Under the pieces are notes generated by a model. That model made no database searches and was not told the origin of the DNA. It was given only the letters and a program-made list of their open reading frames with translations. From NCBI GenBank assembly GCA_965230935.1, contig OZ246400.1, positions 438,359-502,358 of the forward strand: a stretch of DNA of 64,000 nucleotides, given 5' to 3'. The position numbers were made by a program, and so were the translations under genes. The DNA comes from an uncultured Gammaproteobacteria bacterium. Its GTDB lineage: Bacteria > Patescibacteriota > Patescibacteriia > Magasanikbacterales > JBBTQS01. Positions 13,507-60,782 of the stretch are shown piece after piece. How positions within the stretch are numbered: the first letter of the stretch is position 1; each line of letters starts with the position of its first letter.

Positions 13507-13567
13507 CACAACACCACAACGCAACCCCTCCTTACCAGGAGCGGGTTTTGCAATTACCGCTGTTTCT

Positions 13568-18728: not shown

Positions 18729-19385
18729 ATGTCACACCGACTGTTATTTGGGGGCACAGCTTTGCTGGCTTTGGTGCTCTTTGGCCCCATCATGTTCTTC
18801 TACGTGGTAGAGGAAAACCCGGAAGCTAAGGTCACCACCTTCAGTGAGGGCCGTGAGCGCACCGATCCGATGCTCTGGAGCGCAGCGATCTGCGCCAACA
18901 CCGGCGGGACCGAGCTGTTGGTGAAGTTCCATCGCAACACCGACTACCCCGAGGCCACACTGCTTCCGGACCCGAAGATCCCTGAGGGGTGGGTGTGCGG
19001 CATGTACCAGAGCCCTTGGCCGGTTGCTGGGGTGGACAAGGAGCTGCTGATCGTTGAGGATCCGCCCAAGGACTTTGCCGGGCTTCTGGTGTGTCCGGAC
19101 ATGGTTCCCAGCCGGGACGATGGTGTTGGGGTGCACCAGACAATGTGCACCGCGCTGACGCGGCAAAGCAACCGACAGGGCGACCTGCACTACGAGCTGT
19201 ACTTCCTGGCCGAAGATCCGGAGCGTGAGGGTCCTCAGCCGCCTATCGTGCGTATCAAGTGCCACGATGTACGCGAGCGTGAGCGTGCTGCAGCACAAGC
19301 AGCGCAAGCGATGACCGGCGACACGCCATCGGAGAGAGACTTGAAGGATCAAGACAACGAACCGGACGAGAGTTCGGTACCGTGA
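18729..19385 (+). CDS. High-GC hypothetical TM-anchored secreted protein (island gene 1 of 2)
   Basis: GAGGAGGAGGA SD upstream; N-terminal TM LLFGGTALLALVLFGPIMFFYVV; GC-rich codons; 218 aa. Confidence 0.5.
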   Translation: MSHRLLFGGTALLALVLFGPIMFFYVVEENPEAKVTTFSEGRERTDPMLWSAAICANTGGTELLVKFHRNTDYPEATLLPDPKIPEGWVCGMYQSPWPVAGVDKELLIVEDPPKDFAGLLVCPDMVPSRDDGVGVHQTMCTALTRQSNRQGDLHYELYFLAEDPEREGPQPPIVRIKCHDVRERERAAAQAAQAMTGDTPSERDLKDQDNEPDESSVP

Positions 19386-19531: not shown

Positions 19532-19563
19532 CCTCTCCCACCAACAAACACACAACCAGAAAA

Positions 19564-34933: not shown

Positions 34934-34994
34934 AATCAAAACGACCCGACTGTTTGTCGAGCCATCCTGGTTGTGTTGTGTAATGTAGTGCGGC

Positions 34995-35294
34995 TTACCG
35001 CGTGCGGGCGCGGGTGCCGGACTTGATTCCCTGACCAGCGTGAAGCGTGTCGGTCAGGTTGTACCCGGCGAGCTGTGGGAACCGATCGGTGTACTGCTTG
35101 GCCACCAGAGTACGGCGCTCCAGTGGAGCCCGACGCACCTGCGAGCGTGCCAGCAGAGCCGCGGCCTTGACTCGGCCGTTGTCGATCTCGCGCCTGATGG
35201 CGCCACCCATGGCAATCACGGTCTGTGTATTGCCACCGACACGCTGCTCACGGGTGAGCCGCTCGTCTACCGGTAGTGGGATACGTGCTCCCAT
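34995..35294 (-). CDS. High-GC small basic protein B (100 aa) of a two-gene overlapping cassette
   Basis: MGARIPLPVDERLTREQRVGG...; ATG overlaps upstream stop (TGATG); downstream CA-rich tract ACACAACACAACCAGG + hairpin + T-run. Confidence 0.4.
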   Translation of the reverse strand: MGARIPLPVDERLTREQRVGGNTQTVIAMGGAIRREIDNGRVKAAALLARSQVRRAPLERRTLVAKQYTDRFPQLAGYNLTDTLHAGQGIKSGTRARTR

Positions 35295-35551
35295 CAGATC
35301 TTCCCCCTCATGCGTCGACGCCCAGCGCGACCGGCCTGTACTGGTGCCGGCGGCGCCATGCGCTGCAGGTGCCGCTCCAGCCGATCGGCCTCGCGATCGT
35401 TGCCGCACGCCCGAAGCCGCTCGATCACCGCGTTCCCCGAGACACGCTCGGTACGCAGCGACATCGCCGAAGGGAGCGATCGTGGCGCCTCCCCATGTGC
35501 CGCGCCTCCAGCAACTGGACCGCGGCTATGCCCAATGGATTCTTCACCCAT
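35294..35551 (-). CDS. High-GC small protein A (85 aa) of two-gene cassette; possible TA/regulatory pair (unassigned)
   Basis: ATG 35551 with GAGGAG SD 9 nt upstream; MGEESIGHSRGPVAGG...RLERHLQRM; GC-rich. Confidence 0.4.
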   Translation of the reverse strand: MGEESIGHSRGPVAGGAAHGEAPRSLPSAMSLRTERVSGNAVIERLRACGNDREADRLERHLQRMAPPAPVQAGRAGRRRMRGKI

Positions 35552-38043: not shown

Positions 38044-38553
38044 CTAAATACGTAGCCACTGGCCAAAACGATCTGAAAATGGCATTTTTTGCTCTTCTGG
38101 GTCGTGCTCAATATAAAACGCAAGTAACGCACGAACATCATCTATTCCCTCACGAGCCATTGGCACGGCAATACGAGGACGTACGACATTGGTAAAATCA
38201 ACATACACAATCGCATCCTCCGGATGCGTCACGATCCAAAATCGCTCAATGTTTTGAAATGGAAAAAAGGTATCCTCAAGAACCAACCCTTTATTACTAA
38301 CGCCAAAAAACACCTGACGTGGTTCTTTAACTTCATGAAACGCAACAATAATAGCAACAAAAATAGTTACCACCGCAAAAAAGTAATTTTGATCAGCAAG
38401 CGCATAAATCAACAACGCCAATACCAGCAATCCTGCACCAATATACCACCACCGATTACGATCATGTTTATGAAATTCAGGAATCTGCCATCCGGCCAAC
38501 ATGTCATCCTCTGCAACCCCTTTGGGGAGGATAATCTCTATTTGGTCTGCCAT
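38044..38553 (-). CDS. Hypothetical membrane protein (2 TM then soluble domain)
   Basis: start reassigned to MADQIEIILPKG (38553) because listed N-extension overlaps upstream gene; WWYIGAGLLVLALLIYALADQNYFFAVVTIFVAIIVAF TMs. Confidence 0.45.
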   Translation of the reverse strand: MADQIEIILPKGVAEDDMLAGWQIPEFHKHDRNRWWYIGAGLLVLALLIYALADQNYFFAVVTIFVAIIVAFHEVKEPRQVFFGVSNKGLVLEDTFFPFQNIERFWIVTHPEDAIVYVDFTNVVRPRIAVPMAREGIDDVRALLAFYIEHDPEEQKMPFSDRFGQWLRI

Positions 38554-38647
38554 ATGCTTATAGTATACCATTGCTGATACGGCACAACAATATACAACGA
38601 ACAAACCCAGCCTACCGGCCGGGTTTGTGATTGTATGAAACTTTTTT

Positions 38648-39208
38648 CTATGAACTCGCTGCCCTGGACTCAAAAAATAATTTTGCCTGAACAAATGCCG
38701 CCACCACTTGGATAGAAAACATCAAAAGAAATAACGTGGTAAACCCCCATTGATTAACAATAAATGTTCCGATGAACACTGCGAATCCTACCACAATCAT
38801 TGTCCCACCATTATCCAGACCCCATTGTAAGCCTGCGTTATCCTTCTGGATGTACTGAGCATACAACGCATTTAATGGTGCTGAAAGACATGCAACTGCT
38901 AATGCAAAAAGGATTTGAAGTAAAAATAACTGCCAAGGATTCTGTATCACCAAATACCCTAAACTCCCAAGTGCATAAAGAAGATACCCAATCACAGTAA
39001 TCAATTCCTTATTAAGACTGTCAGAGATTTTTCCAATGACTATCATTAAGACACCTGCCGCCAAACTAAACACGGCTGTGGTGTATCCAATGTCTAAAAT
39101 ACTCCCCCCTATTTGTTCTACAAAAACTGCGTAAAAAGGCCCGATGAGATTCCCACCAAGATTTGCAATCAAACCTGCCAAAAGCAGTATCTTATATTCT
39201 CTTCTCAT
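38648..39208 (-). CDS. 6-TM protein resembling one half of an MFS transporter (possible truncated/half transporter)
   Basis: 186 aa, six hydrophobic helices with MFS-like short loops; no partner half nearby. Confidence 0.4.
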   Translation of the reverse strand: MRREYKILLLAGLIANLGGNLIGPFYAVFVEQIGGSILDIGYTTAVFSLAAGVLMIVIGKISDSLNKELITVIGYLLYALGSLGYLVIQNPWQLFLLQILFALAVACLSAPLNALYAQYIQKDNAGLQWGLDNGGTMIVVGFAVFIGTFIVNQWGFTTLFLLMFSIQVVAAFVQAKLFFESRAASS

Positions 39209-46301: not shown

Positions 46302-49154
46302 TTACTCATCAAACTGAGCAAAACTTCCAGCACTTGGCGGCTCTGATGCTTTGAACTCTGCAACCACTTCCGGCTTACTCTTTTCAATTGCGCTGAGCAC
46401 TTGTTGCATGCTTACTCCTGCTTGTCCGGCATTGCCTTTACCAATGGCCTTGACCATTGCCTTTTGCAACACCTTCAATGCTTTGACCGTTCCAACACTA
46501 TCGCTAAATCCTTGTTGTGCTGTAGGTGAGCTATTGATTGCAGACATGGCAGCATCTCCTTGTCCAGCAGCGATCAACTTACCAAGATTTTCGCCCACAC
46601 TTGCGGCATCTGGTTTTGCTCCACCGACCGCCTTTTCAAATACGTCTTGGAAATCTTTTGGATTGGTGACATGGACACTGAGTACGCCACTTTTCTCCTT
46701 GTCATCTTTCTCTTCACCCTCTTCTTTGCCACCTGATGCTGGTTTTTCAGTCTTCGGTGCCGCCTTTGGTTCGGCCTTTGGCGCACCTTTCACACCTGCT
46801 GCTTCAGTTGGTTCAGCTGCTTCTTCTGGTTTTTTCCCTGGTTTGCGACGTGATCCTACCCCACTTGTTGGACGTTTTGCTTTGCCAGTAGGTGGCGCCT
46901 CTTCAGCTGCACCCTCCTCTGGTGCAGCAGCAGCCGCATCAGCTGGTGGTGGAGTTGGTTTTGGTCGACGACGAGCTCCTGATCCTACACCACTGGTTGG
47001 TCGTTTTGCTTTGCCAGCTGGCGGCTCAGTAGGCTCAGGTGGTTCTGGACGATCATGTGAGCCGGCATCAACATCTTGGTCTTGGCCAGGACGTTGGGTT
47101 GGAGCACCACCGCCACCGGCAGCTCCTCCACCGCCTGCGGCGCCTCCTCCTGCACCACCTGCGCCAGCTGCACCACCACCGGCAGCTCCGCCTCCTCCTG
47201 CACCACCTGCACCGCCGCCAGGACCTGGTGCCGGACGACCAGCAGCACTGCCATGGAATCGGGTGTTCCATGCGTCTCTTTCTGCTCTTGAGTCATCACC
47301 TTTGTTTCGTTTCATGTACTCTTTCTCCATAGCAGCAAAGTCAACAACCTTATCGTATGTATCATCATTTACACCAGGAGCAAGTTGATTCTGATGTGCA
47401 GGAGTTGATCCAGCAGGGAACTTGCGACCTGCCTCTGTCAAAAGTTCGGTATCATCAAAGTCAGTGTAGTCTTTTTGCTTATCAGCAACCGCCCCACGAA
47501 TCTCTTTACGCGCACCATCAGTCGGATTAGTGGTTCCGCGCTCTTGTACTTGTCGCTTGTTGTATGCCTCTTTAACATCTGACTGTTTCTCATCACCACT
47601 CTTAAAGAAGAAACCTCCAACTGTACCGAAATCTTTTGCACCTTTGCGCGCAGAATAAATCTGAGACCCGTCTTTTAAGAATGGAATTTGTGCTTTTCCT
47701 GATGCCACATCTTTTGATGCAGACTTCAAAAAGTTAACCCCTTTATTAACCGTATTCCCAACAGTCTGCTGAGTAAGCTGTTTAGTATAGCCATATCCTT
47801 TATCCACTCCAGCACGCGCATATCCGGCAATCTTCGCGGCAACAGTAGCCGCAGCCCCGCTCATCCCACCGGCATATTTAATTCCTCCAATGAGCACAAC
47901 ACTACTCACAATAAAGGCAGCCATGTTATTCCAGGTCGAAATCTCAGTATTCGTAATACTTGGTGTGTCTTTAAATGCTTTCCCTTCTCCACCAAGTGCA
48001 TCAACGACCACTTTTACGGAATCAGAATTCATCAAATCAAAAGCAGCCTCATTTTGCTGAACCGAAGTTAAGGCAAGCCAGACAAAAAATACCAAGATTG
48101 GACCAACCGTAATTTGTTTCACCAAATGATCTACCCACTTACTAAAGTATTGTCTAGTTGCAGGAAGCACGGCAAACAAAAATGCCAAAGGAGATAGAAT
48201 AATCAAAATCCAAATGCCAACAATTCGAAAAACAATCACCAGCAACAAGGTAAGCGCGATCGTCAACGCAAAAGTAGAAATAATTAACGTCAAGCTCAAC
48301 CCAATCCAGTTTTGAATAAAGTCATAACTTACAAACGACGCTGCGATTTGGGTGCCAATTTCTGCAAGTGCGCTCCCTGTTGCTTCACCTTCGGCCTTTC
48401 CAACAGTGTCCTGAACGGCAATAGCCGCTTGATCGATCAATGGTTTAAGCTTGAGCCAAGAATCAATACGCAATAAGTTAACAAAGTTTCTTCCTGCACT
48501 GTCATATAAGGCACTGGAGAATGTCAACATGACCACTTGTGCAGCATCAAGAAGTAGTCCAATAATGGTTCTACTGAAGTTCACCAAAAAGATTGCCAGG
48601 ATCAATCGTGGAATCAATTGTTGATATTGATATGAAGCAATCCGAAAGACCGTTGCAAAAGCGATCACCAACAATACCACCACAAAAAACATGTTTGCTA
48701 CATCCCGGATTGTTGCCCAACCGCTATTAACAAACTCATTATCCAAAAAGTTATTGTACTGGATCATCAAGATAAACGTATTCCATGACCAAATCAGCAC
48801 CCCATTTACCAATTGACTAAACGATTGAATAATAATGTCAAAAAGCAAAAAGAACACATAGAGCATGAAACCTTCGCCAGCCAAACCAACAGCACCTGAC
48901 GCCAAACCACCGAGCAATGCTGCTCCGGTCGCCCCTAAAAACTTTCCAATCTTGGCAACTTTTACCCCTTCAGAATAGTCAGCAACATCACTGTTGAGCA
49001 CCACTGATGTATCTGTTGCGGTGTATGGCACATTGACTGCGGCTTGTGCCTGCGCCATGCCAAGCGAACCAAACAATGAAGACAAGGTAAATACAAAAAG
49101 ACACGCGCCCACAATCGCTTTTCTTAATGAAAGATGTCTATATATGCTTTGCAT
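46302..49154 (-). CDS. Polytopic membrane protein, VirB6/PrgH/TcpH-like by topology and operon position, with long Gly/Ala- and Pro-rich low-complexity region and charged C-terminal domain
   Basis: signal peptide + at least 6 TM in first 450 aa; PAPGPGGGAGGAGGGGAAGGG... stretch; 950 aa. Confidence 0.45.
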   Translation of the reverse strand: MQSIYRHLSLRKAIVGACLFVFTLSSLFGSLGMAQAQAAVNVPYTATDTSVVLNSDVADYSEGVKVAKIGKFLGATGAALLGGLASGAVGLAGEGFMLYVFFLLFDIIIQSFSQLVNGVLIWSWNTFILMIQYNNFLDNEFVNSGWATIRDVANMFFVVVLLVIAFATVFRIASYQYQQLIPRLILAIFLVNFSRTIIGLLLDAAQVVMLTFSSALYDSAGRNFVNLLRIDSWLKLKPLIDQAAIAVQDTVGKAEGEATGSALAEIGTQIAASFVSYDFIQNWIGLSLTLIISTFALTIALTLLLVIVFRIVGIWILIILSPLAFLFAVLPATRQYFSKWVDHLVKQITVGPILVFFVWLALTSVQQNEAAFDLMNSDSVKVVVDALGGEGKAFKDTPSITNTEISTWNNMAAFIVSSVVLIGGIKYAGGMSGAAATVAAKIAGYARAGVDKGYGYTKQLTQQTVGNTVNKGVNFLKSASKDVASGKAQIPFLKDGSQIYSARKGAKDFGTVGGFFFKSGDEKQSDVKEAYNKRQVQERGTTNPTDGARKEIRGAVADKQKDYTDFDDTELLTEAGRKFPAGSTPAHQNQLAPGVNDDTYDKVVDFAAMEKEYMKRNKGDDSRAERDAWNTRFHGSAAGRPAPGPGGGAGGAGGGGAAGGGAAGAGGAGGGAAGGGGAAGGGGAPTQRPGQDQDVDAGSHDRPEPPEPTEPPAGKAKRPTSGVGSGARRRPKPTPPPADAAAAAPEEGAAEEAPPTGKAKRPTSGVGSRRKPGKKPEEAAEPTEAAGVKGAPKAEPKAAPKTEKPASGGKEEGEEKDDKEKSGVLSVHVTNPKDFQDVFEKAVGGAKPDAASVGENLGKLIAAGQGDAAMSAINSSPTAQQGFSDSVGTVKALKVLQKAMVKAIGKGNAGQAGVSMQQVLSAIEKSKPEVVAEFKASEPPSAGSFAQFDE
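47040..47260. repeat. GC-rich low-complexity tandem-like repeats (GGn/GCn codons) encoding Gly/Ala/Pro tract inside VirB6-like gene
   Basis: ccaccgcc / gcaccacc / ggagc iterations; generates long spurious antisense ORF 46351..47388. Confidence 0.5.
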
Positions 49155-49248: not shown

Positions 49249-49290
49249 TCCCCGTTGTTGTGACTCGGCGAAGAAGCGTTCGAAGAGTGG

Positions 49291-50226
49291 CTAGCTCCTC
49301 TTTTTCTTCTTGCGTGAGCCGCCGCCCTTGCCCCGGAACGCCGCCATGAGCTTCATGCGGTTCTCCAGCGAGATGTCGGCCCACTTCTCGTCGGTCATCA
49401 TCTCGGCGAAGGCTTTGAAGTCGGCCATCTTCTCCGGCGTCATGTCCCCCACGTGAGCCGGAGTGGTGGAGCGAGGCTTCGCGGTCTGCTTGTGCTCGGT
49501 CTGCACCGCCACCACGCGAAACCCGCAGGTCTTGGGCAGTGGATCACGGCCGTCCACCACACCCGGATCCGGGTCGCTGGTGTTGCAGCCACTGACCACG
49601 GCGGCCTTGAGCGTGTCGTCCATGGCCTGGAGCTCGTCCAGCGTCGGCTTCTTGTCCAGACCGTCGATGAACCGCTTGAGCTCGAACGCCGCCTTACGCC
49701 AGGCCGCGTCCACGATGGCCGCCTTGCCGTTGTCGCCCTTCTTGACGTCGGCGTGGTTCATCAGGTACTTGGCGCACTGCGCCATGGCCGGACCATCACC
49801 TGTGTTGAGCCGCACGCTGAACTTGATCGCCGCCGTAACGTTGGACCCGTCGTGCGCCACGTACTTGATGTGCGCCAGGCAGGCGAACATCCAGTTGTTG
49901 GGACACACGAAGGTCTGGTGACGCAACATCGCGCCGCCAGGCACGAAGTGCTTGCCCCGACCACCGGTGTTGCTCTGGAACGGCCGCACCAGGTCGCCAT
50001 CGCTGTCCACCGCGATCCCCATCTTGCCCGACGGGATGATGAACTCGGACTTGAAGTAGTAGCTGATCGCCAGGATGATCCCGAAGATCGCAATGCCGTA
50101 CCCGGGGACGTCCGGGCTGATCCAGCCCTTCCAGGCGCCAAGCACTGCTGCGATCGCCGTCACGACGAACGCGGTGAAGTAGCTGCGCCAGTCCCATCCC
50201 TCTTTCTTGCTCAAGATGCTCTGCAT
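49291..50226 (-). CDS. High-GC membrane protein with SPFH/band-7-like core (tentative), 2 N-terminal TM, basic tail
   Basis: IIPSGKMGIAVDSDGDLVRPFQSNTGGRGKHFVPGGAMLRHQ...AAIKFSVRLNTGDGPAMAQ resembles SPFH beta-rich core; GKGGGSRKKKKRS tail; 311 aa. Confidence 0.35.
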   Translation of the reverse strand: MQSILSKKEGWDWRSYFTAFVVTAIAAVLGAWKGWISPDVPGYGIAIFGIILAISYYFKSEFIIPSGKMGIAVDSDGDLVRPFQSNTGGRGKHFVPGGAMLRHQTFVCPNNWMFACLAHIKYVAHDGSNVTAAIKFSVRLNTGDGPAMAQCAKYLMNHADVKKGDNGKAAIVDAAWRKAAFELKRFIDGLDKKPTLDELQAMDDTLKAAVVSGCNTSDPDPGVVDGRDPLPKTCGFRVVAVQTEHKQTAKPRSTTPAHVGDMTPEKMADFKAFAEMMTDEKWADISLENRMKLMAAFRGKGGGSRKKKKRS

Positions 50227-50682
50227 CTTATCCTCCCTCTGTGTGTGGTGTGTAGTGAATCTTCTTCGCCGATCTGCATTGTTTAAAGAGCTGCTTCTGC
50301 AGCAAACAATGAAGTTTGTCGCTTCTGCAACCGTATATCATATCATAATTTGGTGTTTTTGTCAATATTAATTTAGCTAAAATAAGATAAAATCCTAAAA
50401 TAAGTCACAAACTATGCACAGAAAAGCCTTTGTTTGCTGGGTTTTCTATTGACAGAGGGGTACTGTTTTGCTACTGTAAAAGTGACTAAATGTGTCAAAT
50501 AGTTCTTTGTAAAAAGTTGCAAAATCGCACCGGAATGAGGAGTGCAAGCTCATCACTCTAGCGCGATTTTGCAACCAAGAGGGAAAGCCAACCACTTGTA
50601 GTCGTTCTGCTGGAGGTCCCGGGTGGGGCCTGCGACAGGAGTTGCGCCAGGCCACACTCAGACCTATCGGGGGAAAGAAACG

Positions 50683-51531
50683 ATGAAGACCAGGACCCTT
50701 TCGACCATGGCCGTGCTGGCGGCTCTGGTGCTCGCGGGCTGCGCCGCTGAGGCGCCGACCGACGGCAACATGACGCCGGACCAGCAGATCGACCAAAAGA
50801 CGTTCACCGTGGAGGTGGTCGTCGAGCACGCCCAGAATCGTGTGGGCAACGCCGAGGTCACGGCGATGACGCACGGCGCGGTGGCGTACACCGACCACAA
50901 CGGGGTGGCGACGTTCGACAGTCTGCCGGCCGGGCCGGAGACGTTCAAGGTGGACGCGCCGACCATCGAGAAGCCGCTGTACGTGGACGTGAACGTGGGC
51001 GAGGACGACGCGCCGATCACGACCGAGACCGTCACGATCGACCCGGCCGACGCCACCGACACGCCGACGCCGAGTGACGACACCTCGCCCATCGCCGGGC
51101 TGGATCCGGAGCTGGACGAGTACGTCAAGATCGGGTGGGCCACGTGGCTGAGCTTCGACGCCGAAGGCGCGCAAATGGCCGGCGGTGGGCCGAACGACTG
51201 GTACGAGATCGGGTACAACGCCAAGCAGGGCGCGTACAAGATCTACGACCAGGGTCATCCGTTCAGCACCAACTACATCGACACGATCGCCTGCTTCGTG
51301 GAGGTCAAGTCGGACTGCGGTGCTGAGGCGTGCCTGTCGTGCGAGGACCTGATGGTCGGCAACAAGGGGTTCTACTACTCCACCATCGGCACGGTGAGCG
51401 AGAACGGCCACAAGTTCGAGTTTAGCTCAACCAAGACCACGGGAAGTGGGACCGATCCGGTCGGAACAGACGTGTTCACCCTGGAGACCGACCCGGACGG
51501 GAACTACTTCGAGGGCTACGGCGACGAGTAG
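50683..51531 (+). CDS. High-GC secreted lipoprotein A (lipobox LAGC) with N-terminal Thr/Asp/Pro-rich region and 141-aa C-terminal 4-Cys domain shared with lipoprotein B
   Basis: MKTRTLSTMAVLAALVLAGCAAEA; start reassigned to ATG 50683. Confidence 0.5.
   Translation: MKTRTLSTMAVLAALVLAGCAAEAPTDGNMTPDQQIDQKTFTVEVVVEHAQNRVGNAEVTAMTHGAVAYTDHNGVATFDSLPAGPETFKVDAPTIEKPLYVDVNVGEDDAPITTETVTIDPADATDTPTPSDDTSPIAGLDPELDEYVKIGWATWLSFDAEGAQMAGGGPNDWYEIGYNAKQGAYKIYDQGHPFSTNYIDTIACFVEVKSDCGAEACLSCEDLMVGNKGFYYSTIGTVSENGHKFEFSSTKTTGSGTDPVGTDVFTLETDPDGNYFEGYGDE
51101..51525 (+). repeat. Direct repeat copy 1 (425 bp, identical to 51866..52290), encodes shared C-terminal domain
   Basis: read base-by-base against copy 2; identical protein-level ORFs also appear in all overlapping frames of the ORF track. 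Confidence 0.85.
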
Positions 51532-51585
51532 TCCCTGAAGACCTGGCCTGGTCAACTCCCTCACACAACTAACACACAACAAGAA

Positions 51586-51619
51586 AACCCCCAGCAGACT
51601 GCTGCGGGTGTTCTTTTTT
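51586..51619 (+). terminator. Rho-independent terminator CAGCAG-A-CTGCTG + T9 after lipoprotein A (preceded by CA-rich ACACAAC tract)
   Basis: perfect palindrome 51591..51603, T-run 51611..51619. Confidence 0.55.
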
Positions 51620-51628
51620 TAGTAAACT

Positions 51629-51657
51629 ATTGCATTTACAATCGCTTTTATCTACAA
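51629..51657 (+). promoter_or_regulatory. Sigma70-like promoter TTGCAT-17-TACAAT for lipoprotein B (AT-rich segment inside high-GC island)
   Basis: hexamers 51629..51634 and 51652..51657; AAGGAGG SD before ATG 51691. Confidence 0.4.
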
Positions 51658-51690
51658 TCACCTAAGGCACAGGCAAAGGAGGAAACAGCC

Positions 51691-52299
51691 ATGCCATACC
51701 GATATGCGATGGGCTTCGTGCTCATGATGCTCTTGAGCACCTGCGCAGACACGACGTCCAATGAGGATGGGCGTCCTCATGGACTGACCTCTGATCCCGG
51801 CCTGTTTACGAACGAAGACGCCCGACCATGGTCACCCAGCCTCACCGGCAATCCGATTGATGGCATGGATCCGGAGCTGGACGAGTACGTCAAGATCGGG
51901 TGGGCCACGTGGCTGAGCTTCGACGCCGAAGGCGCGCAAATGGCCGGCGGTGGGCCGAACGACTGGTACGAGATCGGGTACAACGCCAAGCAGGGCGCGT
52001 ACAAGATCTACGACCAGGGTCATCCGTTCAGCACCAACTACATCGACACGATCGCCTGCTTCGTGGAGGTCAAGTCGGACTGCGGTGCTGAGGCGTGCCT
52101 GTCGTGCGAGGACCTGATGGTCGGCAACAAGGGGTTCTACTACTCCACCATCGGCACGGTGAGCGAGAACGGCCACAAGTTCGAGTTTAGCTCAACCAAG
52201 ACCACGGGAAGTGGGACCGATCCGGTCGGAACAGACGTGTTCACCCTGGAGACCGACCCGGACGGGAACTACTTCGAGGGCTACGGCGACAACCAGTAG
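51691..52299 (+). CDS. High-GC secreted lipoprotein B (LLSTC lipobox-like) with the same 141-aa C-terminal 4-Cys domain
   Basis: MPYRYAMGFVLMMLLSTCADTT; perfect AAGGAGG SD; 202 aa. Confidence 0.5.
   Translation: MPYRYAMGFVLMMLLSTCADTTSNEDGRPHGLTSDPGLFTNEDARPWSPSLTGNPIDGMDPELDEYVKIGWATWLSFDAEGAQMAGGGPNDWYEIGYNAKQGAYKIYDQGHPFSTNYIDTIACFVEVKSDCGAEACLSCEDLMVGNKGFYYSTIGTVSENGHKFEFSSTKTTGSGTDPVGTDVFTLETDPDGNYFEGYGDNQ
51866..52290 (+). repeat. Direct repeat copy 2 (425 bp identical to 51101..51525); downstream about 80 bp also about 90% similar including terminator
   Basis: see copy 1. Confidence 0.85.
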
Positions 52300-52403
52300 T
52301 CCTTGAAGGCCTGGCCTGGTCAACTCCCTCACACAACCCAACACACAACAAGAAAACCCCAGCGAACTGCTGAGGGATTTCTTTTTTGTAAAGAGTTTTA
52401 TGA

Positions 52404-55400
52404 TTACTTTTCTTCTTTGACAATAATCAACCCTTCAAAATGCGCTGATGCATAATTAAAGTTTTTTGGATCTTTACAATCACCCTTATCTGGGTTGGCT
52501 GCAACTTCTTGCCATGCACCTGTTGATCCATTATGGGAAATACCAGACTGATTCCATTCCATATCAGATCCAGCACCCTTGGCATTACACCAATTCCAAT
52601 TATCCATAATCTGCACTCTTGGCCGAAAAGCGCAATACCTGTCTCCCGTCAAAAAGCCATACTTCTCCGGTTCAAATGCAATCGGTGTTTGAGAACCATC
52701 AGGATTCTCAATATAAGGCACATCCCCAGATCCAACCACGTACAATCCATCATTCTGATCATCTACCAAGCCGGTATTAGACGTACCAGCACCTTCTCCA
52801 GCACAATCACCAAATGAGTAATAATGGATAAACTGATAAAATCCATCAGAACATGCATCAGGATGTGCACCAAATTTATCACCCTCATCAGAACAACTTG
52901 GCACACGGTTTTTATATTTACCGGCAAATCGATCTACATCCGCGTATATGATATTACCATTTTCTTCATAGTCACTATTCCACTTCACTGCCATCTCAGT
53001 AATTGGCATTTGGTTATCAGCAACATCAGCATAAAACTCTACACTTGCCACCATGGACGAACCATTGGAAACAATAAAGCCTTTTTCCTGCCCATTCACT
53101 CCCACTGCCTTGTCATCGCCCTTTTGACATCCTGACGCAGTACAAATCACAGCATTCACACGTGGCGGATGAATAGGCGTCTTTGGACCACCTTGTCCTA
53201 TCGCCTCATTGCTAATGCCGTGGTTTAAGAATCCATTTTCATTTGAAACAATCTTTCGTGCCAAAAATGGATCAACAACACTTGATGGATTGGTCTGTAC
53301 ATACTTATTATCCTGCCATGTCCAGACGTTGTATACCCGCGCAAAAATGTTTTGTAGCATTTGTCGTGCATCTGCCTTTTCGATCGTACCTGATTCTGGT
53401 GCATCATCATTTGTAGGACCAAGTTTATCAAGATCAACGCGACCAATATGCACATCTGTATTGGCATCACCTAGTGGGATCCCCATACACACACCGGAGT
53501 CAACAATAAGCATACCGTCCATGGTCTCAAGAGTCTTTGGTGGACACTGCTCTTGTGAGTTACAAAATGCACCATGATGCTCTCCACCAATACACATACT
53601 TGCACGACAACTATCCCGATCTTGCACAAAGGCCATTGTTCTTTTATCCCCATCTACAAACATGGAGTTATCTATATTATGCGTATAGTTATTCTGACAA
53701 GATAATGGAGACCCGGCATTCAAATACTCAAGTCCTGCACCTTGAATCACCTCGGTCGAATCAGTTGCCACATACCATGGTACGGCATACTCGAGTGATG
53801 ATAATGCCGGATGTGGTGTTGTCTGCACGAGTTGCGGCGGACCACTTTCACTTAAATCTTTAATTGGTGGCGAGGTTGCATGTGCTGAACCAAATGGCAA
53901 AAAGTCCTGATCAAAGGAATACGATGGTCCAAATGCACCAACATCCAAAACCGCAGGTGGGCCAAGCCAAAACGTAGAATATGAATTTACTCGATCAGTC
54001 CATGCAAGATTAGTCTTGTTGTCACTATCTGTACTCAGTGGCGCCTCAGGGTCATACACCTGTGCCACCTCAGTACAATACTCACGCAGATAGAAAATTA
54101 CCGCAAAGTTTACATTAGCATCTCCATTACCAGCATCACACATACGGTGCTCAATTGCAGTAAGTTTTCCGGTGTTGGCATCAAACACTACATCCACTAA
54201 CATGCGATGCCAATCAGGATCACCGGTTGGACAGAATCCTTTTCCTACATTGGCATGTGCATTTGGATGCATCTTAGTCTTGAGTATTGTCTCATCCATG
54301 GTAAATACATAATCGTTTTCCCAGAACCAACGCAATCGGATTGTTTTGTCTTCTTCCCAATCCCACTCATCACCGTCTGGGATTAAGTCGGCATCATCCA
54401 CTACCACCATCTGACTCATCCAACGTCCTGGTGCTACAGGACCACTTCCTTCTTCATGTACCCCATTAAATCGCCCATCAGTGAATATTGCCATTGGGGT
54501 GTCAGTTGGTAGATAGTCATGAGAGCTTCCTCCTCTGGCAACACGAGATTCCGGATCGATATAAATCTCTACTCGCTCAACATCTTCAAATCGCAAATTC
54601 GCATCATCCAGAATCCCACTATAATATGTAGGATGATCTTCATCATCAGCATGGACGCGTGAGTAACAATCAGTTCCACAAGCACCAAGATTAAATTTAC
54701 GCGGCAATCCACCTGGCGATCCCCAGCCTAGGTGATTCACCACCATCTTATACGATGCCGAGTTCAAATAAGGTCGATTCCCTGCATTTTTGTATTCCGG
54801 ATTTGAGGTTTTTACATGTGTTTCATAAACAAGCTCTCCCCCGTAGTCATCCTTGGCATCAAAAACAGATCCCGCAACATACGTAAAGTCATTCCAATCC
54901 CGATGCGCCCCTGCACGCCAGGCATTACCACTGGACTCTACACAATAATATTGCCCACCCTGACCTACCGGCAACTGATACCCTGCCTCATCATATTGGT
55001 TAAAGATATCACTACTCCCCGAAAGTAAGGTTGCCGGATACCACGTCTGACACGCATGAGTAAATTGATTGGCATTAACTGATGTCGACAAATCCTCTTC
55101 TAAACAATACCCTTGTGCACCAAATACCTTTTGTGTGCTCTTCAGATACCGACAGGTGCCGTGTTCGCGATCTGAATCATGTTCAAATCCACCCCGATCA
55201 TCAGTACAATCAGACTTGTGATCACATGCTTGGCCATCACGGGATTGCTCATCCGGACTAAATCCACCGCTACAGACCCCAACAGGTAACACGCCGGTCA
55301 AATCGTAATATCGCGGCGCACTATTTTTAGCACCAAATGACGCCTTTTGATAGGCACAGGCATTACACGCTTGCAGATTACCGTTAGCATCGAACTTCTG

Positions 55401-58400
55401 GCAAGTGTTTACATTTTGATGAGAAGTAAACTTTTCAATCGCGTCCCCGGCCTGGGAGTATGACACCACCACCGATGGTGGGAATGGACTATCTTCTTCT
55501 GGATACATGCGACAACTTTGCGCCACCAAATCCTCTGCCTCTGCATTGATTCCAATGACACATCGTCCAGAATAACAATACCCATTTACCGGAAGATTTG
55601 GCTGCCCATCAAGGGGTAAGTTATACGAACAGGCAGTACCATCACTTTGTCCGGCACAACTTCCACTCGCACCAAGATTTGCAGCATTTTTATGACGGAA
55701 TCCCATGGAGACCTCATTCTTCAGTGCATCAACAACCACCGGCTCGAGATCTGCAGCTTGAAACTTATTAAAGATGGAGTACCCACTATAATCAGCTGCT
55801 GCCCATGACGTGTCGCGACCGGTGTAGAGTGCTTTGGTCAAAATTTGATTATAGGTATCATTTTTCTTCTCCACCCATCGAGTACACTCGCCTGATGTTT
55901 GATCACCTTTCCATTCTGCACACACACCAACATTGGTACACACATCTCGTTCTTCTCCTGCACGATTGTCCCACGCTTTAAATGATGACTTACATGAGAG
56001 CCACTCACTACACACACGATCACGGTTAACCTTCAAGATAATGTTACTGTTGTTCACTCCACATTTTGTTCGTGACTTAAACAAGATACGCTCCAACACT
56101 CCCTCAAGCTCATAAAAGTTGTCCGGTAAAGTGTCTTGAGTTGCAGCATCAAGATAATCTCGACAAAGTTGTGCAGTCGCATTGTACGCTTGTAACCCTG
56201 TTACCTGCTCTGCCCCATCAAAGACAGCTTTATACCCTGCTTGTGCTTCACAAAAATCAACAACCCCGGACTTTACACTCTCAGTACACCGAACACCAAA
56301 GGTCACCTCATCTCCAGCTCCTCCAATCAAATCTCCGACTGCGGTTGGAGTAAAGGTTTCTACTGTGGTCACTTTCACCTCAGTTAATTTTTCCCAACAC
56401 GCTTGAAATTTAGGCTCACAGTTACTATCTGCTACCCATACAAAATCATTAATATCGATCGCTCCTGGAGCATATTGTTTCACCTGCGGACACCCACCAG
56501 ACAAATCAAGATATTCTGCACATTCAATCGGTGTTCCATTAAACGTTGCACCCAAATCTGATGATGCAAGTGGTTCGTGCGGTTGTGGGGCTACCGGATT
56601 ACCGTTATTCTGCGCTGATGCGGCATAGGTCATTTGCGTACTCCACTTTTTCGTGAGATTCGCGGTATCATCAAACAGCACACATCCGTCTTCAAGACTC
56701 ACTTGTCCGGCACAACTGGTGGCATCTAATGCTTCATCATTTAAGAAGTAGTATGGCTTACCAAGAGGCATGCTGTCACTGACATCATTACGGTCAACAA
56801 AGGCGGTACAGCCACCATAAATAGACTTACATTCACCTACCGTACCATCATAGAGCGCATCACCATTTTTCCAAATACCAAACACATTGCCCGCTTCAAC
56901 ATACCCGTCATAACACGGCTCCGGCTGACCAGAATCAGTCACTGATTTAAACCATCCATCGCGAGTCGTACCATCTGGCATGACCACTTTTTCTTGATAG
57001 GTACATCGGTTTGGCCCAGGATCTTTAAAGTAGAAAGTTTGTGTTTGGTTTGAATATGAATCACATCCATTTTCAAACACCTTACACATCTGCGTTACAT
57101 ATTGATCTGGCAAATTATTCAAATATATTGTGTCAACACTACCATTTGCCTTAGTTTCACCAAACGCCTGACACCCTTTTTGCTCGGCCACACACGCAAA
57201 CTCAGGATTATTGACTACATAAATTGCTTGATCTTCAGGAACCACAACGTCATCCTCCGGATTACTGGTGTTGGTTTGCGGATCAATACCGTCATTGAAG
57301 ACCTGGGAACTTACCGATGCGGAGTTTTGCGTATTAATAAACGCCTGACATCCCACCACTTCTTCACGACATACCCGATTAAACCCGGTCAAGAACTGTT
57401 GCTCACCAAGTTCAGTGCTATATTGCTGACAACCAAGCGCCACACCAGGTAAGTTATCATTTGGGTTACTATCACATGCTACCGGCGTATTCCAAGAATC
57501 TTTAATCAAATAATGTACGCCATTTGCCTCTTTCACAAACAACTTATCAATAAAGTACGTTGGCTCGCCCCCACCAACAGCATTCAAGAGCATCCGCCCG
57601 GTCACCACCTGAGTATTATCAACGGTGATTGGGCCAACGGTGTACTGTCGCCATACGGCATCAAGACTTGCTGAATGTGCACCACTGCTGCCTGAGATTA
57701 CTTGACCGGCCTTGTCTTCGAGCTCTAGATCGAATGACACACCGCTGGCACCTTTACCCCAGAAGGTAATGGTATAGGCATTTGCATGTTGCAATACAAA
57801 CCGAGGGGACACAATACCGGTTGCTCCGCCTTCTAACGCATGATCTCCCACAGTCACCGCCTCAGTTGAAAGTGATGCATTTTCCCAATCAATAACGCCG
57901 GCACCACCTTCAAAATCAACTTCATAGATAATGTTTCCTGATGCTGATGCTGCACCGGTATATTCTCGACAAAGATTCTCTCCAGCATCACACTTGTGAC
58001 TCATAGATGGAAGTGCTTTGTACAAACATGCACCGTCAAGCGAGACAGTTCCTCCGGTCTCAGTACATACATCCGCTGCAATTGCTTCGTTTCGACGAAG
58101 TGGTGCACATGAATCAGAAACAATAATCAACTGGGAAATAAATCGATAATACGCATCACCTTCACTGCCAAACAATTCACGACAATCCGGATTGTAGTTT
58201 GGATCAGTATCGCGATTTGCATAAATCGTCGCATTACAGGTTGAAGCAAACTCTGCTAACACCGCAGCGTCATCAGTAAGATATTTTGGCGCATCGGCGT
58301 CCAGTACAAAATCAAAGGACTTGAGCTGGAATCCAACGGTATCAGATCCCTCCCAGGTGTAGAACAGATCATGACCATCCGGACCAACATCAGCCGGTTT

Positions 58401-60782
58401 TACACAGTGTTGTAAATCAGTATAGTACTCAACCTTCTCTCCTCCACTCTCTGCTGAGTCTAAATTCGTAAAACTAGTACACCCAACTGACTCTGCAGCG
58501 CAGGCTACAGCAGTCTCAGGAATAAAGTAATCAATCTCCTCAAGCGGATGGAGAGATGATGCGCTTTGGGCAAATTGCGCATACCCAACACACTCCGCAT
58601 CACAGACATTATTTTGTGATGCAATTGCCGGGACGTCAGGATCGCCATTTGCCGGGGTATACATAGAACATCCCACATCAGCTAAGGTACACAATTGTGC
58701 ATAATCCCCACACTCAAATGGATCAGTGAGTGGATCGCCGGTACATCCAAGATAGTCCGGCGGAATACGCAAATAATTAATGTTGTCCCCTAGCCCCTGT
58801 TGTAAGGCAGTACACCCGGCAGCAGCCTCACTACACGTCCCCACATCTTTATTAAAGAAAATTTGCTTGCCGGCAGTATCCCAACTACCAGACTCAACTT
58901 GATCAGTAAAGTACCCGCGACAACCAACATTTGCCTCAGTACAATACTCATTATTGATGGTACTTGCCAAGTACGATACATTGGCACCGGAGCGAGCCGT
59001 TAAATTGGTACATGATTCATAGTATGCCGGACAACTATTTCCTTTGAAATCCCACGCATTTTTCTCTCGCAAACAATATCCCCATGCACCAACGCACTCG
59101 CCATTTTCATTGGTAACCACACAGGTCGGATCATCAACACAGGCTTCTTGTCTAACAGCCCCGCGATCTGATTGCAATACCGGCCCATATACTTTGGCGC
59201 GACATTGCATCAGAGGAGCAATCAACAACCAATCCGGATCAATCAAGTGACAATATGGATGATTATCATCAGCTACTCCGTCCGGGAAACTTGAGTCGTC
59301 ATAATTACAATCATCAAAACCATCGACGACTGTCTGGAGTGAGACTCCAGCGATTGGCGCCTCAAGTGCTGCGATTTCCCACCCAATTGGCAAAATACGT
59401 GCGCGACGAAGTTTTACTAAATTACTATAACAATACGCCTCGGACCAACAAGAGTTCTGGGAATTTTGCGCAGAATTTGGCGGGAGGAGCAGCCAATCGC
59501 CGTGAATCAAATCTTGTTCTATTGCTTGGGCAACCGTCATTGCTGACTGACTCAAATCAGCTCGAATGGCCTGGGCAAATTTTTCATCAATTGTACAGTT
59601 ATTCTGTTGTGGAAATTCGTCAGGACACGCCAAAAACTCAGTTACAATATCAACACTATTTACACTTTTAACTTCAGCCGTATAAATGTCTGCATACGTT
59701 GCTTCAAATGCTTGCTTTCCTGCTGACGGTTGTGAAAACTGATTAAATGCCAAAGATGATGCTGCAGGAGCTGCTGGAACTGGAGTCTGTCCTTTGGTAA
59801 ACCACTGCTCAATCAACTTATCAGCCAATGTACTTAAAAATGTCCCGGCAATTGAGGCAACAATCCCTTCACCACTGGCGACAAATGCATTAAAGGTGTC
59901 ATTCTGACGCTCATTAGCCGCTTTTGGACCGGAGATCGATGCGGTTTCTTCAACTGATGCCGCTGGTGTCACCACTCGTTCGGAAACTTGATCAGTCACT
60001 GGCTTAAATGAATTGCTTGCCCGTCGTGTAAGTTCTGCTTCTTTTTGCGCATTGAGCACATCAAGCTGTGCTTGGAATTGTGTAAAGTTAGAAAGACTCA
60101 AGTCATTGGAAAGCGGATCAAATGCTTTTTTGTACTCTGCCAAAAAGACACTTGGCTCGTTTTCTTCTGCAAAGGTCTCCCAATTATCGATAATGTCACG
60201 AAAATCACATCGTTGTTGTAACTTGGTTTCACTTGGAGTACCAAAACCACTACCACCTCCCCCACCTAAAATATTCCCCACTTCAAAACCACTAAACAGT
60301 GCCGCTGGAATACCATAAAGCAGATACGGCGCATCCGGAGAACATAGACTTAATCGCCGTGTTGAACCATCTGAAAACTCACCCAAAAAACTATCTCCGA
60401 TTGACTCGACCGCTTCACCTGCTGCACCATAGGCAGCATTTTCCAAATACTCACCCCAATCTACTTCAAACGCCAATGGTGTTTGTCCCCACTCACCAGT
60501 AGCAATATAGGTTGCGGTATCAGCAGCCAACTTATTTCCATATTGTGATGCTAAGTTGACCAGTGCAACCGTTCCGGCTTGCAATAAGAATTCAGCAATG
60601 TTTGTGACTACTCGTTCCCAAATATTGTTTCCTACGGTGATTCCCTCAAGCACCGGCGCGGTAACTGCAAATTGCGCATGTGCTGGTTGTGCCGGAACCA
60701 TGCCCATCACGGTGAGTGCAACCGCAAAAACACCAAGCAGTGTTTTCTTTATCCATGACGATTGTGAACGTGGTGTATGCAT
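52404..60782 (-). CDS. Giant (2792 aa) secreted cysteine-rich cell-surface protein (adhesin/pilus-like candidate) of the T4SS-like operon
   Basis: signal peptide MHTPRSQSSWIKKTLLGVFAVALTVMGMVPAQPAHAQ; very high Cys content throughout; single uninterrupted ORF. Confidence 0.55.
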   Translation of the reverse strand: MHTPRSQSSWIKKTLLGVFAVALTVMGMVPAQPAHAQFAVTAPVLEGITVGNNIWERVVTNIAEFLLQAGTVALVNLASQYGNKLAADTATYIATGEWGQTPLAFEVDWGEYLENAAYGAAGEAVESIGDSFLGEFSDGSTRRLSLCSPDAPYLLYGIPAALFSGFEVGNILGGGGGSGFGTPSETKLQQRCDFRDIIDNWETFAEENEPSVFLAEYKKAFDPLSNDLSLSNFTQFQAQLDVLNAQKEAELTRRASNSFKPVTDQVSERVVTPAASVEETASISGPKAANERQNDTFNAFVASGEGIVASIAGTFLSTLADKLIEQWFTKGQTPVPAAPAASSLAFNQFSQPSAGKQAFEATYADIYTAEVKSVNSVDIVTEFLACPDEFPQQNNCTIDEKFAQAIRADLSQSAMTVAQAIEQDLIHGDWLLLPPNSAQNSQNSCWSEAYCYSNLVKLRRARILPIGWEIAALEAPIAGVSLQTVVDGFDDCNYDDSSFPDGVADDNHPYCHLIDPDWLLIAPLMQCRAKVYGPVLQSDRGAVRQEACVDDPTCVVTNENGECVGAWGYCLREKNAWDFKGNSCPAYYESCTNLTARSGANVSYLASTINNEYCTEANVGCRGYFTDQVESGSWDTAGKQIFFNKDVGTCSEAAAGCTALQQGLGDNINYLRIPPDYLGCTGDPLTDPFECGDYAQLCTLADVGCSMYTPANGDPDVPAIASQNNVCDAECVGYAQFAQSASSLHPLEEIDYFIPETAVACAAESVGCTSFTNLDSAESGGEKVEYYTDLQHCVKPADVGPDGHDLFYTWEGSDTVGFQLKSFDFVLDADAPKYLTDDAAVLAEFASTCNATIYANRDTDPNYNPDCRELFGSEGDAYYRFISQLIIVSDSCAPLRRNEAIAADVCTETGGTVSLDGACLYKALPSMSHKCDAGENLCREYTGAASASGNIIYEVDFEGGAGVIDWENASLSTEAVTVGDHALEGGATGIVSPRFVLQHANAYTITFWGKGASGVSFDLELEDKAGQVISGSSGAHSASLDAVWRQYTVGPITVDNTQVVTGRMLLNAVGGGEPTYFIDKLFVKEANGVHYLIKDSWNTPVACDSNPNDNLPGVALGCQQYSTELGEQQFLTGFNRVCREEVVGCQAFINTQNSASVSSQVFNDGIDPQTNTSNPEDDVVVPEDQAIYVVNNPEFACVAEQKGCQAFGETKANGSVDTIYLNNLPDQYVTQMCKVFENGCDSYSNQTQTFYFKDPGPNRCTYQEKVVMPDGTTRDGWFKSVTDSGQPEPCYDGYVEAGNVFGIWKNGDALYDGTVGECKSIYGGCTAFVDRNDVSDSMPLGKPYYFLNDEALDATSCAGQVSLEDGCVLFDDTANLTKKWSTQMTYAASAQNNGNPVAPQPHEPLASSDLGATFNGTPIECAEYLDLSGGCPQVKQYAPGAIDINDFVWVADSNCEPKFQACWEKLTEVKVTTVETFTPTAVGDLIGGAGDEVTFGVRCTESVKSGVVDFCEAQAGYKAVFDGAEQVTGLQAYNATAQLCRDYLDAATQDTLPDNFYELEGVLERILFKSRTKCGVNNSNIILKVNRDRVCSEWLSCKSSFKAWDNRAGEERDVCTNVGVCAEWKGDQTSGECTRWVEKKNDTYNQILTKALYTGRDTSWAAADYSGYSIFNKFQAADLEPVVVDALKNEVSMGFRHKNAANLGASGSCAGQSDGTACSYNLPLDGQPNLPVNGYCYSGRCVIGINAEAEDLVAQSCRMYPEEDSPFPPSVVVSYSQAGDAIEKFTSHQNVNTCQKFDANGNLQACNACAYQKASFGAKNSAPRYYDLTGVLPVGVCSGGFSPDEQSRDGQACDHKSDCTDDRGGFEHDSDREHGTCRYLKSTQKVFGAQGYCLEEDLSTSVNANQFTHACQTWYPATLLSGSSDIFNQYDEAGYQLPVGQGGQYYCVESSGNAWRAGAHRDWNDFTYVAGSVFDAKDDYGGELVYETHVKTSNPEYKNAGNRPYLNSASYKMVVNHLGWGSPGGLPRKFNLGACGTDCYSRVHADDEDHPTYYSGILDDANLRFEDVERVEIYIDPESRVARGGSSHDYLPTDTPMAIFTDGRFNGVHEEGSGPVAPGRWMSQMVVVDDADLIPDGDEWDWEEDKTIRLRWFWENDYVFTMDETILKTKMHPNAHANVGKGFCPTGDPDWHRMLVDVVFDANTGKLTAIEHRMCDAGNGDANVNFAVIFYLREYCTEVAQVYDPEAPLSTDSDNKTNLAWTDRVNSYSTFWLGPPAVLDVGAFGPSYSFDQDFLPFGSAHATSPPIKDLSESGPPQLVQTTPHPALSSLEYAVPWYVATDSTEVIQGAGLEYLNAGSPLSCQNNYTHNIDNSMFVDGDKRTMAFVQDRDSCRASMCIGGEHHGAFCNSQEQCPPKTLETMDGMLIVDSGVCMGIPLGDANTDVHIGRVDLDKLGPTNDDAPESGTIEKADARQMLQNIFARVYNVWTWQDNKYVQTNPSSVVDPFLARKIVSNENGFLNHGISNEAIGQGGPKTPIHPPRVNAVICTASGCQKGDDKAVGVNGQEKGFIVSNGSSMVASVEFYADVADNQMPITEMAVKWNSDYEENGNIIYADVDRFAGKYKNRVPSCSDEGDKFGAHPDACSDGFYQFIHYYSFGDCAGEGAGTSNTGLVDDQNDGLYVVGSGDVPYIENPDGSQTPIAFEPEKYGFLTGDRYCAFRPRVQIMDNWNWCNAKGAGSDMEWNQSGISHNGSTGAWQEVAANPDKGDCKDPKNFNYASAHFEGLIIVKEEK

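Follow-up and report, generated by a model that had tools for sequence, protein, structure and literature searches.

Paralogous surface-protein and lipoprotein genes that undergo segmental gene conversion are known from several bacteria, such as the pilE/pilS genes of Neisseria, the vlsE cassettes of Borrelia, and the variable lipoproteins of Mycoplasma. Here, we describe two neighboring genes, Lpp1 and Lpp2, in a 64,000-nucleotide stretch of the chromosome of an ultra-small Patescibacteria bacterium (hereafter the window; GenBank assembly GCA_965230935.1, contig OZ246400.1, positions 438,359 to 502,358), whose 3' portions form a perfect 425-bp direct repeat. The duplication is real. Its uneven divergence suggests that it is old and has been mostly homogenized by gene conversion, and the complete identity of the two copies in the window is probably an artifact of assembly that conceals a divergent patch. 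The phenomenon itself, in which paralogous surface-protein genes within a foreign island are homogenized by conversion, is known and holds little surprise for the specialist; what is new is an orphan example of it.

Like the described conversion systems, the Lpp pair consists of neighboring paralogues with leader peptides, and it forms a mosaic of identical and divergent segments in which the synonymous sites of the identical parts are homogenized. The segmental mosaicism of antigenic-variation cassettes is present in the pair as seen in independently assembled contigs. Unlike those systems, however, the locus holds two copies only, each with its own ribosome-binding site and terminator, and no silent cassettes; the divergent patch bears no sign of positive selection (ratio of non-synonymous to synonymous substitution, dN/dS, ~0.35), and the shared domain is unrelated to their families. 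Cassette-based antigenic variation would also call for silent donor copies, promoter-less or truncated, that supply segments to one expressed gene; none is present, each of the two genes being a full open reading frame (ORF) with its own Shine-Dalgarno sequence, leader, and terminator. Polymorphic toxin and effector systems are likewise modular, with one module in common and the other different, but they combine a conserved N-terminal trafficking part with a variable C-terminal toxin and an immunity gene next to it, and the Lpp layout is the reverse, with a varying N-terminus and a common C-terminus. No toxin, immunity, or trafficking domain was found in the Lpp genes by Pfam or NCBIfam, and the polymorphic-effector-like pattern suggested by the original prediction is a weak analogy given the reversed layout and the lack of a toxin or immunity domain.

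The genomic setting invites a further comparison. A survey of Patescibacteria describes a monoderm-type type IV secretion system (T4SS; VirB4, PrgI/VirB3, VirB6) whose genes are widespread in the group and essential for epibiotic growth in one cultivated Saccharibacterium (PMC12102498). The same core genes occur in the window, and the Lpp genes adjoin the VirB6-like gene; the T4SS components listed in that survey do not include genes of the Lpp type.

The two repeat copies, at 51101-51525 and 51866-52290 (both on the plus strand), are identical over 425 bp with 0 mismatches by direct string comparison, as the original prediction had stated, and on either side the exact match stops at these coordinates. 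Set 765 bp apart, they encode a shared module of 141 aa (DPELDEYVKIGW...NYFEGYGD). A repeat finder returned the same pair and, further downstream, three shorter blocks of similarity; the two repeat copies were the only matches in the window to a 61-nt probe taken from them (0 expected from 100 shuffles); and tblastn with the encoded domain found two copies and no third within the 64 kb. The repeat is therefore real and far beyond chance. Resemblance continues past its end, where 51526-51620 and 52291-52388 are identical in 84 of 99 aligned columns (~85%) with three small indels. The resemblance had thus been rightly noted, though the figure given for it, about 90% over roughly 80 bp, was too high for the ~95 bp measured here. 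The stop contexts differ (GAC GAG TAG in copy 1, GAC AAC CAG TAG in copy 2), and the Lpp2-specific 3' end past the repeat reads AACCAGTAG..., with 52291 as the first copy-2-specific base. The N-terminal parts are unrelated, again as predicted: blastp aligns only residues 129-281 of Lpp1 with residues 48-200 of Lpp2, and local DNA alignment of the regions upstream of the repeat gave noise, with no significant similarity.

We compared the window with other assemblies from project PRJEB17505, namely ENA MEGAHIT (k127) and Logan assemblies of runs ERR2281800 and ERR2281801, found by exact-protein look-up; our literature search found no paper mentioning the project or the run or assembly accessions. 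Over 7 kb the window has full (100%) identity with an ERR2281800 contig, and over 5.7 kb it differs at one base (99.98%) from an ERR2281801 contig, L003. It is thus nearly identical to contigs of both runs and represents the same population. Contig L005 (k127_99884, ERR2281801), which carries a 2792-aa giant gene found downstream of Lpp2, matches the window base for base over 11,769 bp, between positions 64000 and 52232. Against window 52126-52231 it then has 32 substitutions at equal length, and it is identical again as far as 51999, where the contig ends. One k-mer length, exactly 127 bases, separates this end from the first difference, as a de Bruijn graph gives if the sequence further to the left is common to another locus. 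The start of a partner contig was predicted at 51234, and a matching partial product was found by look-up. The contig concerned, L006 (k127_100077; 759 bp, on record for two samples), reproduces window 51234-51992 without a difference. It covers the copy-1 patch, the stop and terminator of Lpp1, the spacer, the start of Lpp2, and the initial 127 bases of copy 2. L005 and L006 share their starting 127-mer, and the end of L006 coincides with the 127-mer that opens copy 2.

The contig ends therefore fall on k=127 junction nodes, which points to an arrangement with one version of the patch (A) in copy 1 and another (B) in copy 2, and to a graph branch at 51361/52126 in at least two samples. The branch expected across the 59-bp shared segment if both copies carried version A, the A-A arrangement of the window, is absent in L005 and L006. 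Between them, these contigs match copy 1 from 51234 on (L006) and copy 2 at 51866-51992 (L006), 51999-52125, and 52232-52290 (both L005). Because they carry both copies with distinct flanks, both copies and the spacer between them are real. The window differs from L005 only inside the patch. The 425-bp identity is hence a property of this assembly, and two other assemblies of the same population do not reproduce it. The original prediction had warned of long perfect repeats as an assembly hazard. The warning was apt, not for false duplication, as L005 and L006 hold both copies, but for false homogenization of the patch.

The patch occupies 51361-51466 (+) in copy 1, where L006 has the same version A as the window, and 52126-52231 (+) in copy 2, where the window again has version A and k127_99884 has version B. 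Over these 106 bp, A and B differ by 32 substitutions (70% identity), which amount to 13 non-synonymous and 7 synonymous codon changes. Synonymous divergence (dS) is 0.81 and non-synonymous divergence (dN) 0.29 by the Nei-Gojobori method; dS is 0 in the flanks. The ratio of ~0.35 is without evidence of positive selection. In the A-B arrangement the repeat is thus a mosaic of 260 bp identical, 106 bp at 70%, and 59 bp identical, and the chance of all 32 differences falling within a given 106 of 425 bp is ~5e-20.

These data bear on how the pair arose. The original prediction offered two histories, a very recent duplication or ongoing gene conversion. The former is contradicted by 3' untranslated regions (UTRs) that are ~15% diverged with indels and by a copy-2 patch with dS ~0.8 in independent contigs; the latter is the best explanation for the perfectly identical stretches, where flanks with dS of 0 lie beside that patch. 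We infer that the duplication is old and has been mostly homogenized by gene conversion. An old duplication would have given Lpp1 and Lpp2 their paralogous modules, 3' UTRs, and terminators, and RecA-type intrachromosomal gene conversion between the direct repeats may then have homogenized most of the module, with the patch left out. The only alternative to an old duplication with conversion is that the patch was acquired from a third homologue not seen here, which would likewise be recombinational.

Equal-length alternative paths between shared flanks have the shape that the bulge removal of de Bruijn assemblers merges as strain variation. Patches A and B present such paths and resemble a strain "bubble." An assembler might merge them into one, after which a simple loop would be traversed once and the module written out twice, giving the 425-bp identity of the window. 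The locus shares with collapsed-bubble artifacts the equal-length paths, the shared flanks, the presence of one path in both copies, and the retention of both paths in other assemblies. On balance, we favor a collapsed equal-length bubble over a further conversion event as the probable source of the full identity in the window. Several points weigh against this account and what we build on it. The window could be a genuine A-A variant from another sample, and the evidence consists of contigs rather than reads; the locus evidently undergoes conversion, which makes a further event plausible; and a k-mer graph would prune a low-frequency A-A strain. On the protein side, the lipobox of Lpp2 is non-canonical, structure prediction failed (pLDDT 38 and 47), and the surface location and function proposed below are deduced solely from leader peptides and gene neighborhood.

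If the collapse is real, a "perfect" repeat in a metagenome-assembled genome can mask true divergence between paralogues, and dN/dS estimates, the dating of duplications, or claims of recent conversion drawn from this assembly would mislead. In this case, the hidden divergence came to light, without recourse to reads, from the positions at which contigs end in other assemblies of the same runs.

Alternatively, the window may be correct, with a further conversion having copied patch A from Lpp1 into Lpp2, so that the window and the ENA contigs represent two alleles of a locus subject to variation by segmental conversion. Conversion has already acted at the locus, as flanks with dS = 0 beside a patch with dS ~0.8 attest, and the identity of the window and L005 outside 52126-52231 is what a short conversion tract would leave. 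Moreover, the one single-nucleotide difference from L003 (ERR2281801) means that the window was not necessarily built from those reads. Yet the same 759-bp contig occurs in two samples with ends that require an A-B branch point, L005 and L006 both cross the 59-bp shared segment without the branch of an A-A allele, and the replaced segment coincides exactly with the equal-length bubble. No complete Lpp2 of the window type is on record, its exact protein having no public entry; the partial product expected of a MEGAHIT contig of A-A type is also unrecorded, a negative that we judge uninformative. We regard a second allele as possible but the less likely origin of the A-A sequence.

Had the 3' half of Lpp1 and its terminator been duplicated in tandem very recently and fused to a new 5' end, the 0 differences over 425 bp in the window would be accounted for. 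Such an event would leave coding and non-coding parts equally similar, however, and the 3' UTRs directly past the repeat are ~85% identical with indels, the stop contexts differ, and the patch has a dS of ~0.8 in the independent contigs. Because of the diverged UTRs and patch, we hold recent duplication to be very unlikely. It is still less likely that a single module was duplicated by the assembler and that one copy does not exist. Assemblers are known to err at long exact repeats, and all public short-read contigs break inside or near this one, but L006 by itself runs from the end of copy 1 through the stop, UTR, and spacer to the start of Lpp2 and the initial 127 bp of copy 2; L005 ties what remains of copy 2, including a patch, stop, and UTR of its own, to the giant gene; and the copies differ in their flanks on both sides. 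Finally, diversity-generating retroelements (DGRs) are common in Patescibacteria and a ~100-bp variable stretch with identical flanks near the C-terminus of a surface protein recalls a DGR variable region with the other copy as template repeat, but we give this scarcely any credence, as the 32 substitutions are of ten types (A>C 5, G>A 5, A>G 4, G>T 4, T>G 3, T>C 3, C>G 3, and others) without restriction to the adenines of one copy, so that the reading fails the test for adenine specificity, both copies are translated genes, and a Pfam scan of the window ORFs (most, not all, of those of at least 150 aa) gave no reverse transcriptase.

In Lpp1 (50683-51531, plus strand; 282 aa), a predicted signal peptide and lipobox precede a weak immunoglobulin (Ig)-like N-domain, which an Asp/Thr/Pro linker connects to the shared C-terminal module. 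As marks of a lipoprotein we took a positively charged n-region, a hydrophobic h-region, and a lipobox of the form [LVI][ASTVI][GAS]C. The Lpp1 leader, MKTRTLSTMAVLAALVLAGC, contains K/R, is hydrophobic, and ends in the canonical lipobox VLAGC (L-A-G-C) with Cys20, as read from the translation, and by these features Lpp1 qualifies as a predicted signal peptidase II lipoprotein. Lpp2 (51691-52299, plus strand; 202 aa) joins a hydrophobic leader and a 40-aa linker to the same module. Its leader, MPYRYAMGFVLMMLLSTC, is charged and hydrophobic and ends in LLSTC, a non-canonical lipobox with Thr at -1 instead of G/A/S. The original description of two lipoproteins thus holds for Lpp1; for Lpp2, lipidation is predicted at most. 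Residues ~46-109 of Lpp1 matched PF13620 (CarboxypepD_reg) with an E-value of 7e-5 and 23.5 bits, under the gathering cut-off of 32.3, and a CarboxypepD_reg-type Ig fold for the N-domain is only a lead at a score short of the Pfam threshold. The G+C content at third codon positions (GC3) is 0.89 in Lpp1 and 0.83 in Lpp2, falling to 0.66 in the N-terminal 58 codons of the latter.

Each gene has a Shine-Dalgarno-like sequence, a leader, and a terminator as expression signals. A strong Shine-Dalgarno-like sequence, AAAGGAGG, lies 7-8 nt from the ATG of Lpp2, and a weaker one, GGGGGAAAG, precedes Lpp1. The spacer before Lpp2 (51622-51690, +) also contains TACAAT-type -10-like boxes; no site in it passed a consensus promoter scan, and a promoter there is predicted from sequence only. 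The 3' UTR of Lpp1 (51532-51621, +) comprises a CA-rich tract (CTCACACAACTAACACACAACAAGAAAA) and a hairpin at 51581-51615 (-16.6 kcal/mol, z -3.0); that of Lpp2 (52300-52392, +), which is the same in L005, has a CA-rich tract and a hairpin at 52345-52389 (-17.3 kcal/mol, z -4.5). Both terminator hairpins fold clearly better than shuffled sequence and are followed by a T-run. Because each gene has its own terminator, Lpp1 and Lpp2 are separate transcription units. A further hairpin with 27-nt arms (inverted repeat I1) stands at 50516-50575 (+) in the AT-rich divergent region between Lpp1 and the orphan gene upstream of it. At -31.1 kcal/mol (z -5.1), and followed by a GC-rich leader of ~100 nt before the Lpp1 start, it may be a leader or regulatory element; an Rfam scan of the window found four tRNAs only and no family for this hairpin.

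The shared module has four cysteines (C..C...C..C), to which patch B adds two more, and it is an orphan with no known relatives in the collections searched. No homologue was found in a word-indexed search of 5.8 billion clusters or among IMG/VR viral contigs and JGI metagenome contigs, and an exhaustive phmmer search of 1.84 billion representatives gave a sole match, to residues 35-103 of Lpp1 in the N-domain, and none to the module. Pfam and PHROGs at permissive E-values, NCBIfam, and PDB sequences likewise returned no match to it, and an exact 45-mer from the repeat had none in a GTDB genome scan. The protein collection excludes partial proteins and the repeat breaks assemblies, so fragmentary homologues of the module could escape these searches. 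Single-sequence AlphaFold2 models reached a pLDDT of only 37.7 for Lpp1 and 46.8 for the module and were discarded for low confidence, as was a Foldseek comparison of them with PDB, which gave nothing below an E-value of 0.27. These low-confidence models suggest that the module may be beta-rich.

We propose that Lpp1 and Lpp2 are secreted, probably lipid- or membrane-anchored surface proteins that would have a cysteine-stabilized module in common as their working part and would differ in the length of the stalk that presents it. In Lpp1 this stalk would consist of the Ig-like domain and the linker, and in Lpp2 of the short linker. The pair may exchange sequence by homologous recombination. Leader peptides and gene neighborhood are consistent with a role in contact with a host cell or the environment.

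The window is a Patescibacteria chromosome segment with housekeeping genes that include ClpP, TsaD, PheST, MurD, a ClpB-type ATPase, and others. Its T4SS cluster encodes VirB4 (NF045971, E 1e-102), PrgI, a TrbL/VirB6-like protein of 950 aa, and a T4SS-pilin/amidase protein. The VirB6-like protein has homologues in entries labeled Kerfeldbacteria, Magasanikbacteria, or "Patescibacteria group," the best at only 45% identity, and a GTDB genome scan gave no match to it. The giant gene beyond Lpp2 (52404-60782, minus strand) encodes a cysteine-rich, putative surface protein of 2792 aa with a signal peptide and no Pfam domain. Its position beside the T4SS cluster is kept in a relative, L007, at 27-37% identity, where the order is a 2777-aa giant gene, cargo, a VirB6-like gene, a 581-aa gene, PrgI, a TraC-like gene, and a 3'-truncated gene at the VirB4 position with no Pfam on record. 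The cargo of L007 has nothing in common with that of the window. It comprises a toxin-antitoxin pair, a phosphotransferase, and hypothetical genes, and part of it has raised GC3. As unrelated cargo occupies the same position in the relative, the Lpp genes represent accessory cargo in a variable slot, bounded by the VirB6-like gene and the giant gene, rather than part of the T4SS core. The locus adds an orphan, cysteine-containing, presumably secreted module to the poorly understood accessory genes beside the Patescibacteria T4SS, a region tied to the epibiotic lifestyle.

Upstream of Lpp1 lies an orphan gene on the opposite strand (49291-50226, minus) that encodes 311 aa with N-terminal membrane segments and has a GC3 of 0.90. 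Its sole database match is itself, on a Logan contig of ERR2281801, and viral contigs gave nothing. Lpp1, Lpp2, and this gene have GC3 values of 0.83-0.90 vs ~0.40 for the rest of the window, with spacers of 43-46% GC between them, and together form a compositionally foreign orphan island. Such an island marks foreign DNA in the lineage and bears on the routes and sources of gene acquisition.

The island is not alone in its composition. At least five GC-rich cassettes occur in the window, at 12523-13506 (+), 18729-19385 (+), 34995-35551 (-), 49291-50226 (-), and 50683-52299 (+), that is, at four loci among the housekeeping genes (12.5-13.5, 18.7-19.6, 35.0-35.6, and 49.3-52.4 kb). They have a GC content of 0.60-0.65 and a GC3 of 0.66-0.90 vs ~0.45 and ~0.40 for the genome. 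Matches in Pfam, NCBIfam, and PHROG are lacking for all of them; two were compared with large protein collections and are orphans. Every cassette is followed by a CA-rich tract with (A)CACAAC and then by a hairpin with a T-run. The tracts, at 13506-13528, 19535-19563, 34960-34990 (-), 49255-49270 (-), 51560-51593, and 52326-52361, lie within ~60 nt of the last stop codon or just past a small ORF that follows gene g218. The motif ACACAAC occurs 14 times in the window on both strands, with eight of these occurrences within ~655 nt of sense-oriented 3' regions, where ~0.07 are expected, and the 3' UTR of g218 aligns with those of the Lpp genes (AACACACAAC[A/C]AGAAAA). The tracts suggest a common source or a common 3' module.

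A bolder proposal would be that the cassettes share a foreign source or an undescribed route of gene acquisition, and that the Lpp pair is a host-contact module that varies by segmental conversion, with the A-A window and the A-B contigs as two switch states. We consider this doubtful; were it true, one possibility would be that a high-GC host supplied the DNA and that the type IV secretion or competence machinery encoded nearby took it up. Integron gene cassettes were also considered and rejected, as the hairpins after the ORFs have T-runs and look like intrinsic terminators rather than attC sites, Pfam gave no integrase among the scanned ORFs of the window, and the cassettes are scattered rather than arrayed. 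A transposase was likewise absent from the scanned ORFs.

Some contig ends in the other assemblies (the start of L003 at 19155 and the ends of the Logan contig L001 at 49078 and 51067) lie inside or at the edge of GC-rich cassettes. No repeated k-mer accounts for these breaks, and no repeat boundary coincides with the L001 ends; the breaks possibly reflect a drop of coverage in 65-70% GC or variation in cassette presence between strains. The cassette at 34995-35551 (-) is best read as two small overlapping genes (85 and ~99 aa) with a strong Shine-Dalgarno sequence and a toxin-antitoxin-like layout, and with no Pfam match; the 177-aa, Arg-rich plus-strand ORF over the same interval is probably in the wrong frame.

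Two observations concern other genes of the window. The VirB6/TrbL-like gene (46302-49154, -) has a GC-rich (up to 68%), low-complexity Gly/Ala/Pro tail, most marked at ~46900-47300, with an internal repeat in which GKAKRPTSGVGS occurs twice. The exact 950-aa protein has no record in public assemblies although its neighbors are recorded; other assemblies probably break or differ at this tail, which may be another assembly-sensitive spot. Finally, the overlapping ORFs at 38044-39208 (-), of 186 aa (the first half of an MFS_1 domain) and then 216 aa, look like a split or frameshifted gene for a transporter of the major facilitator superfamily (MFS).

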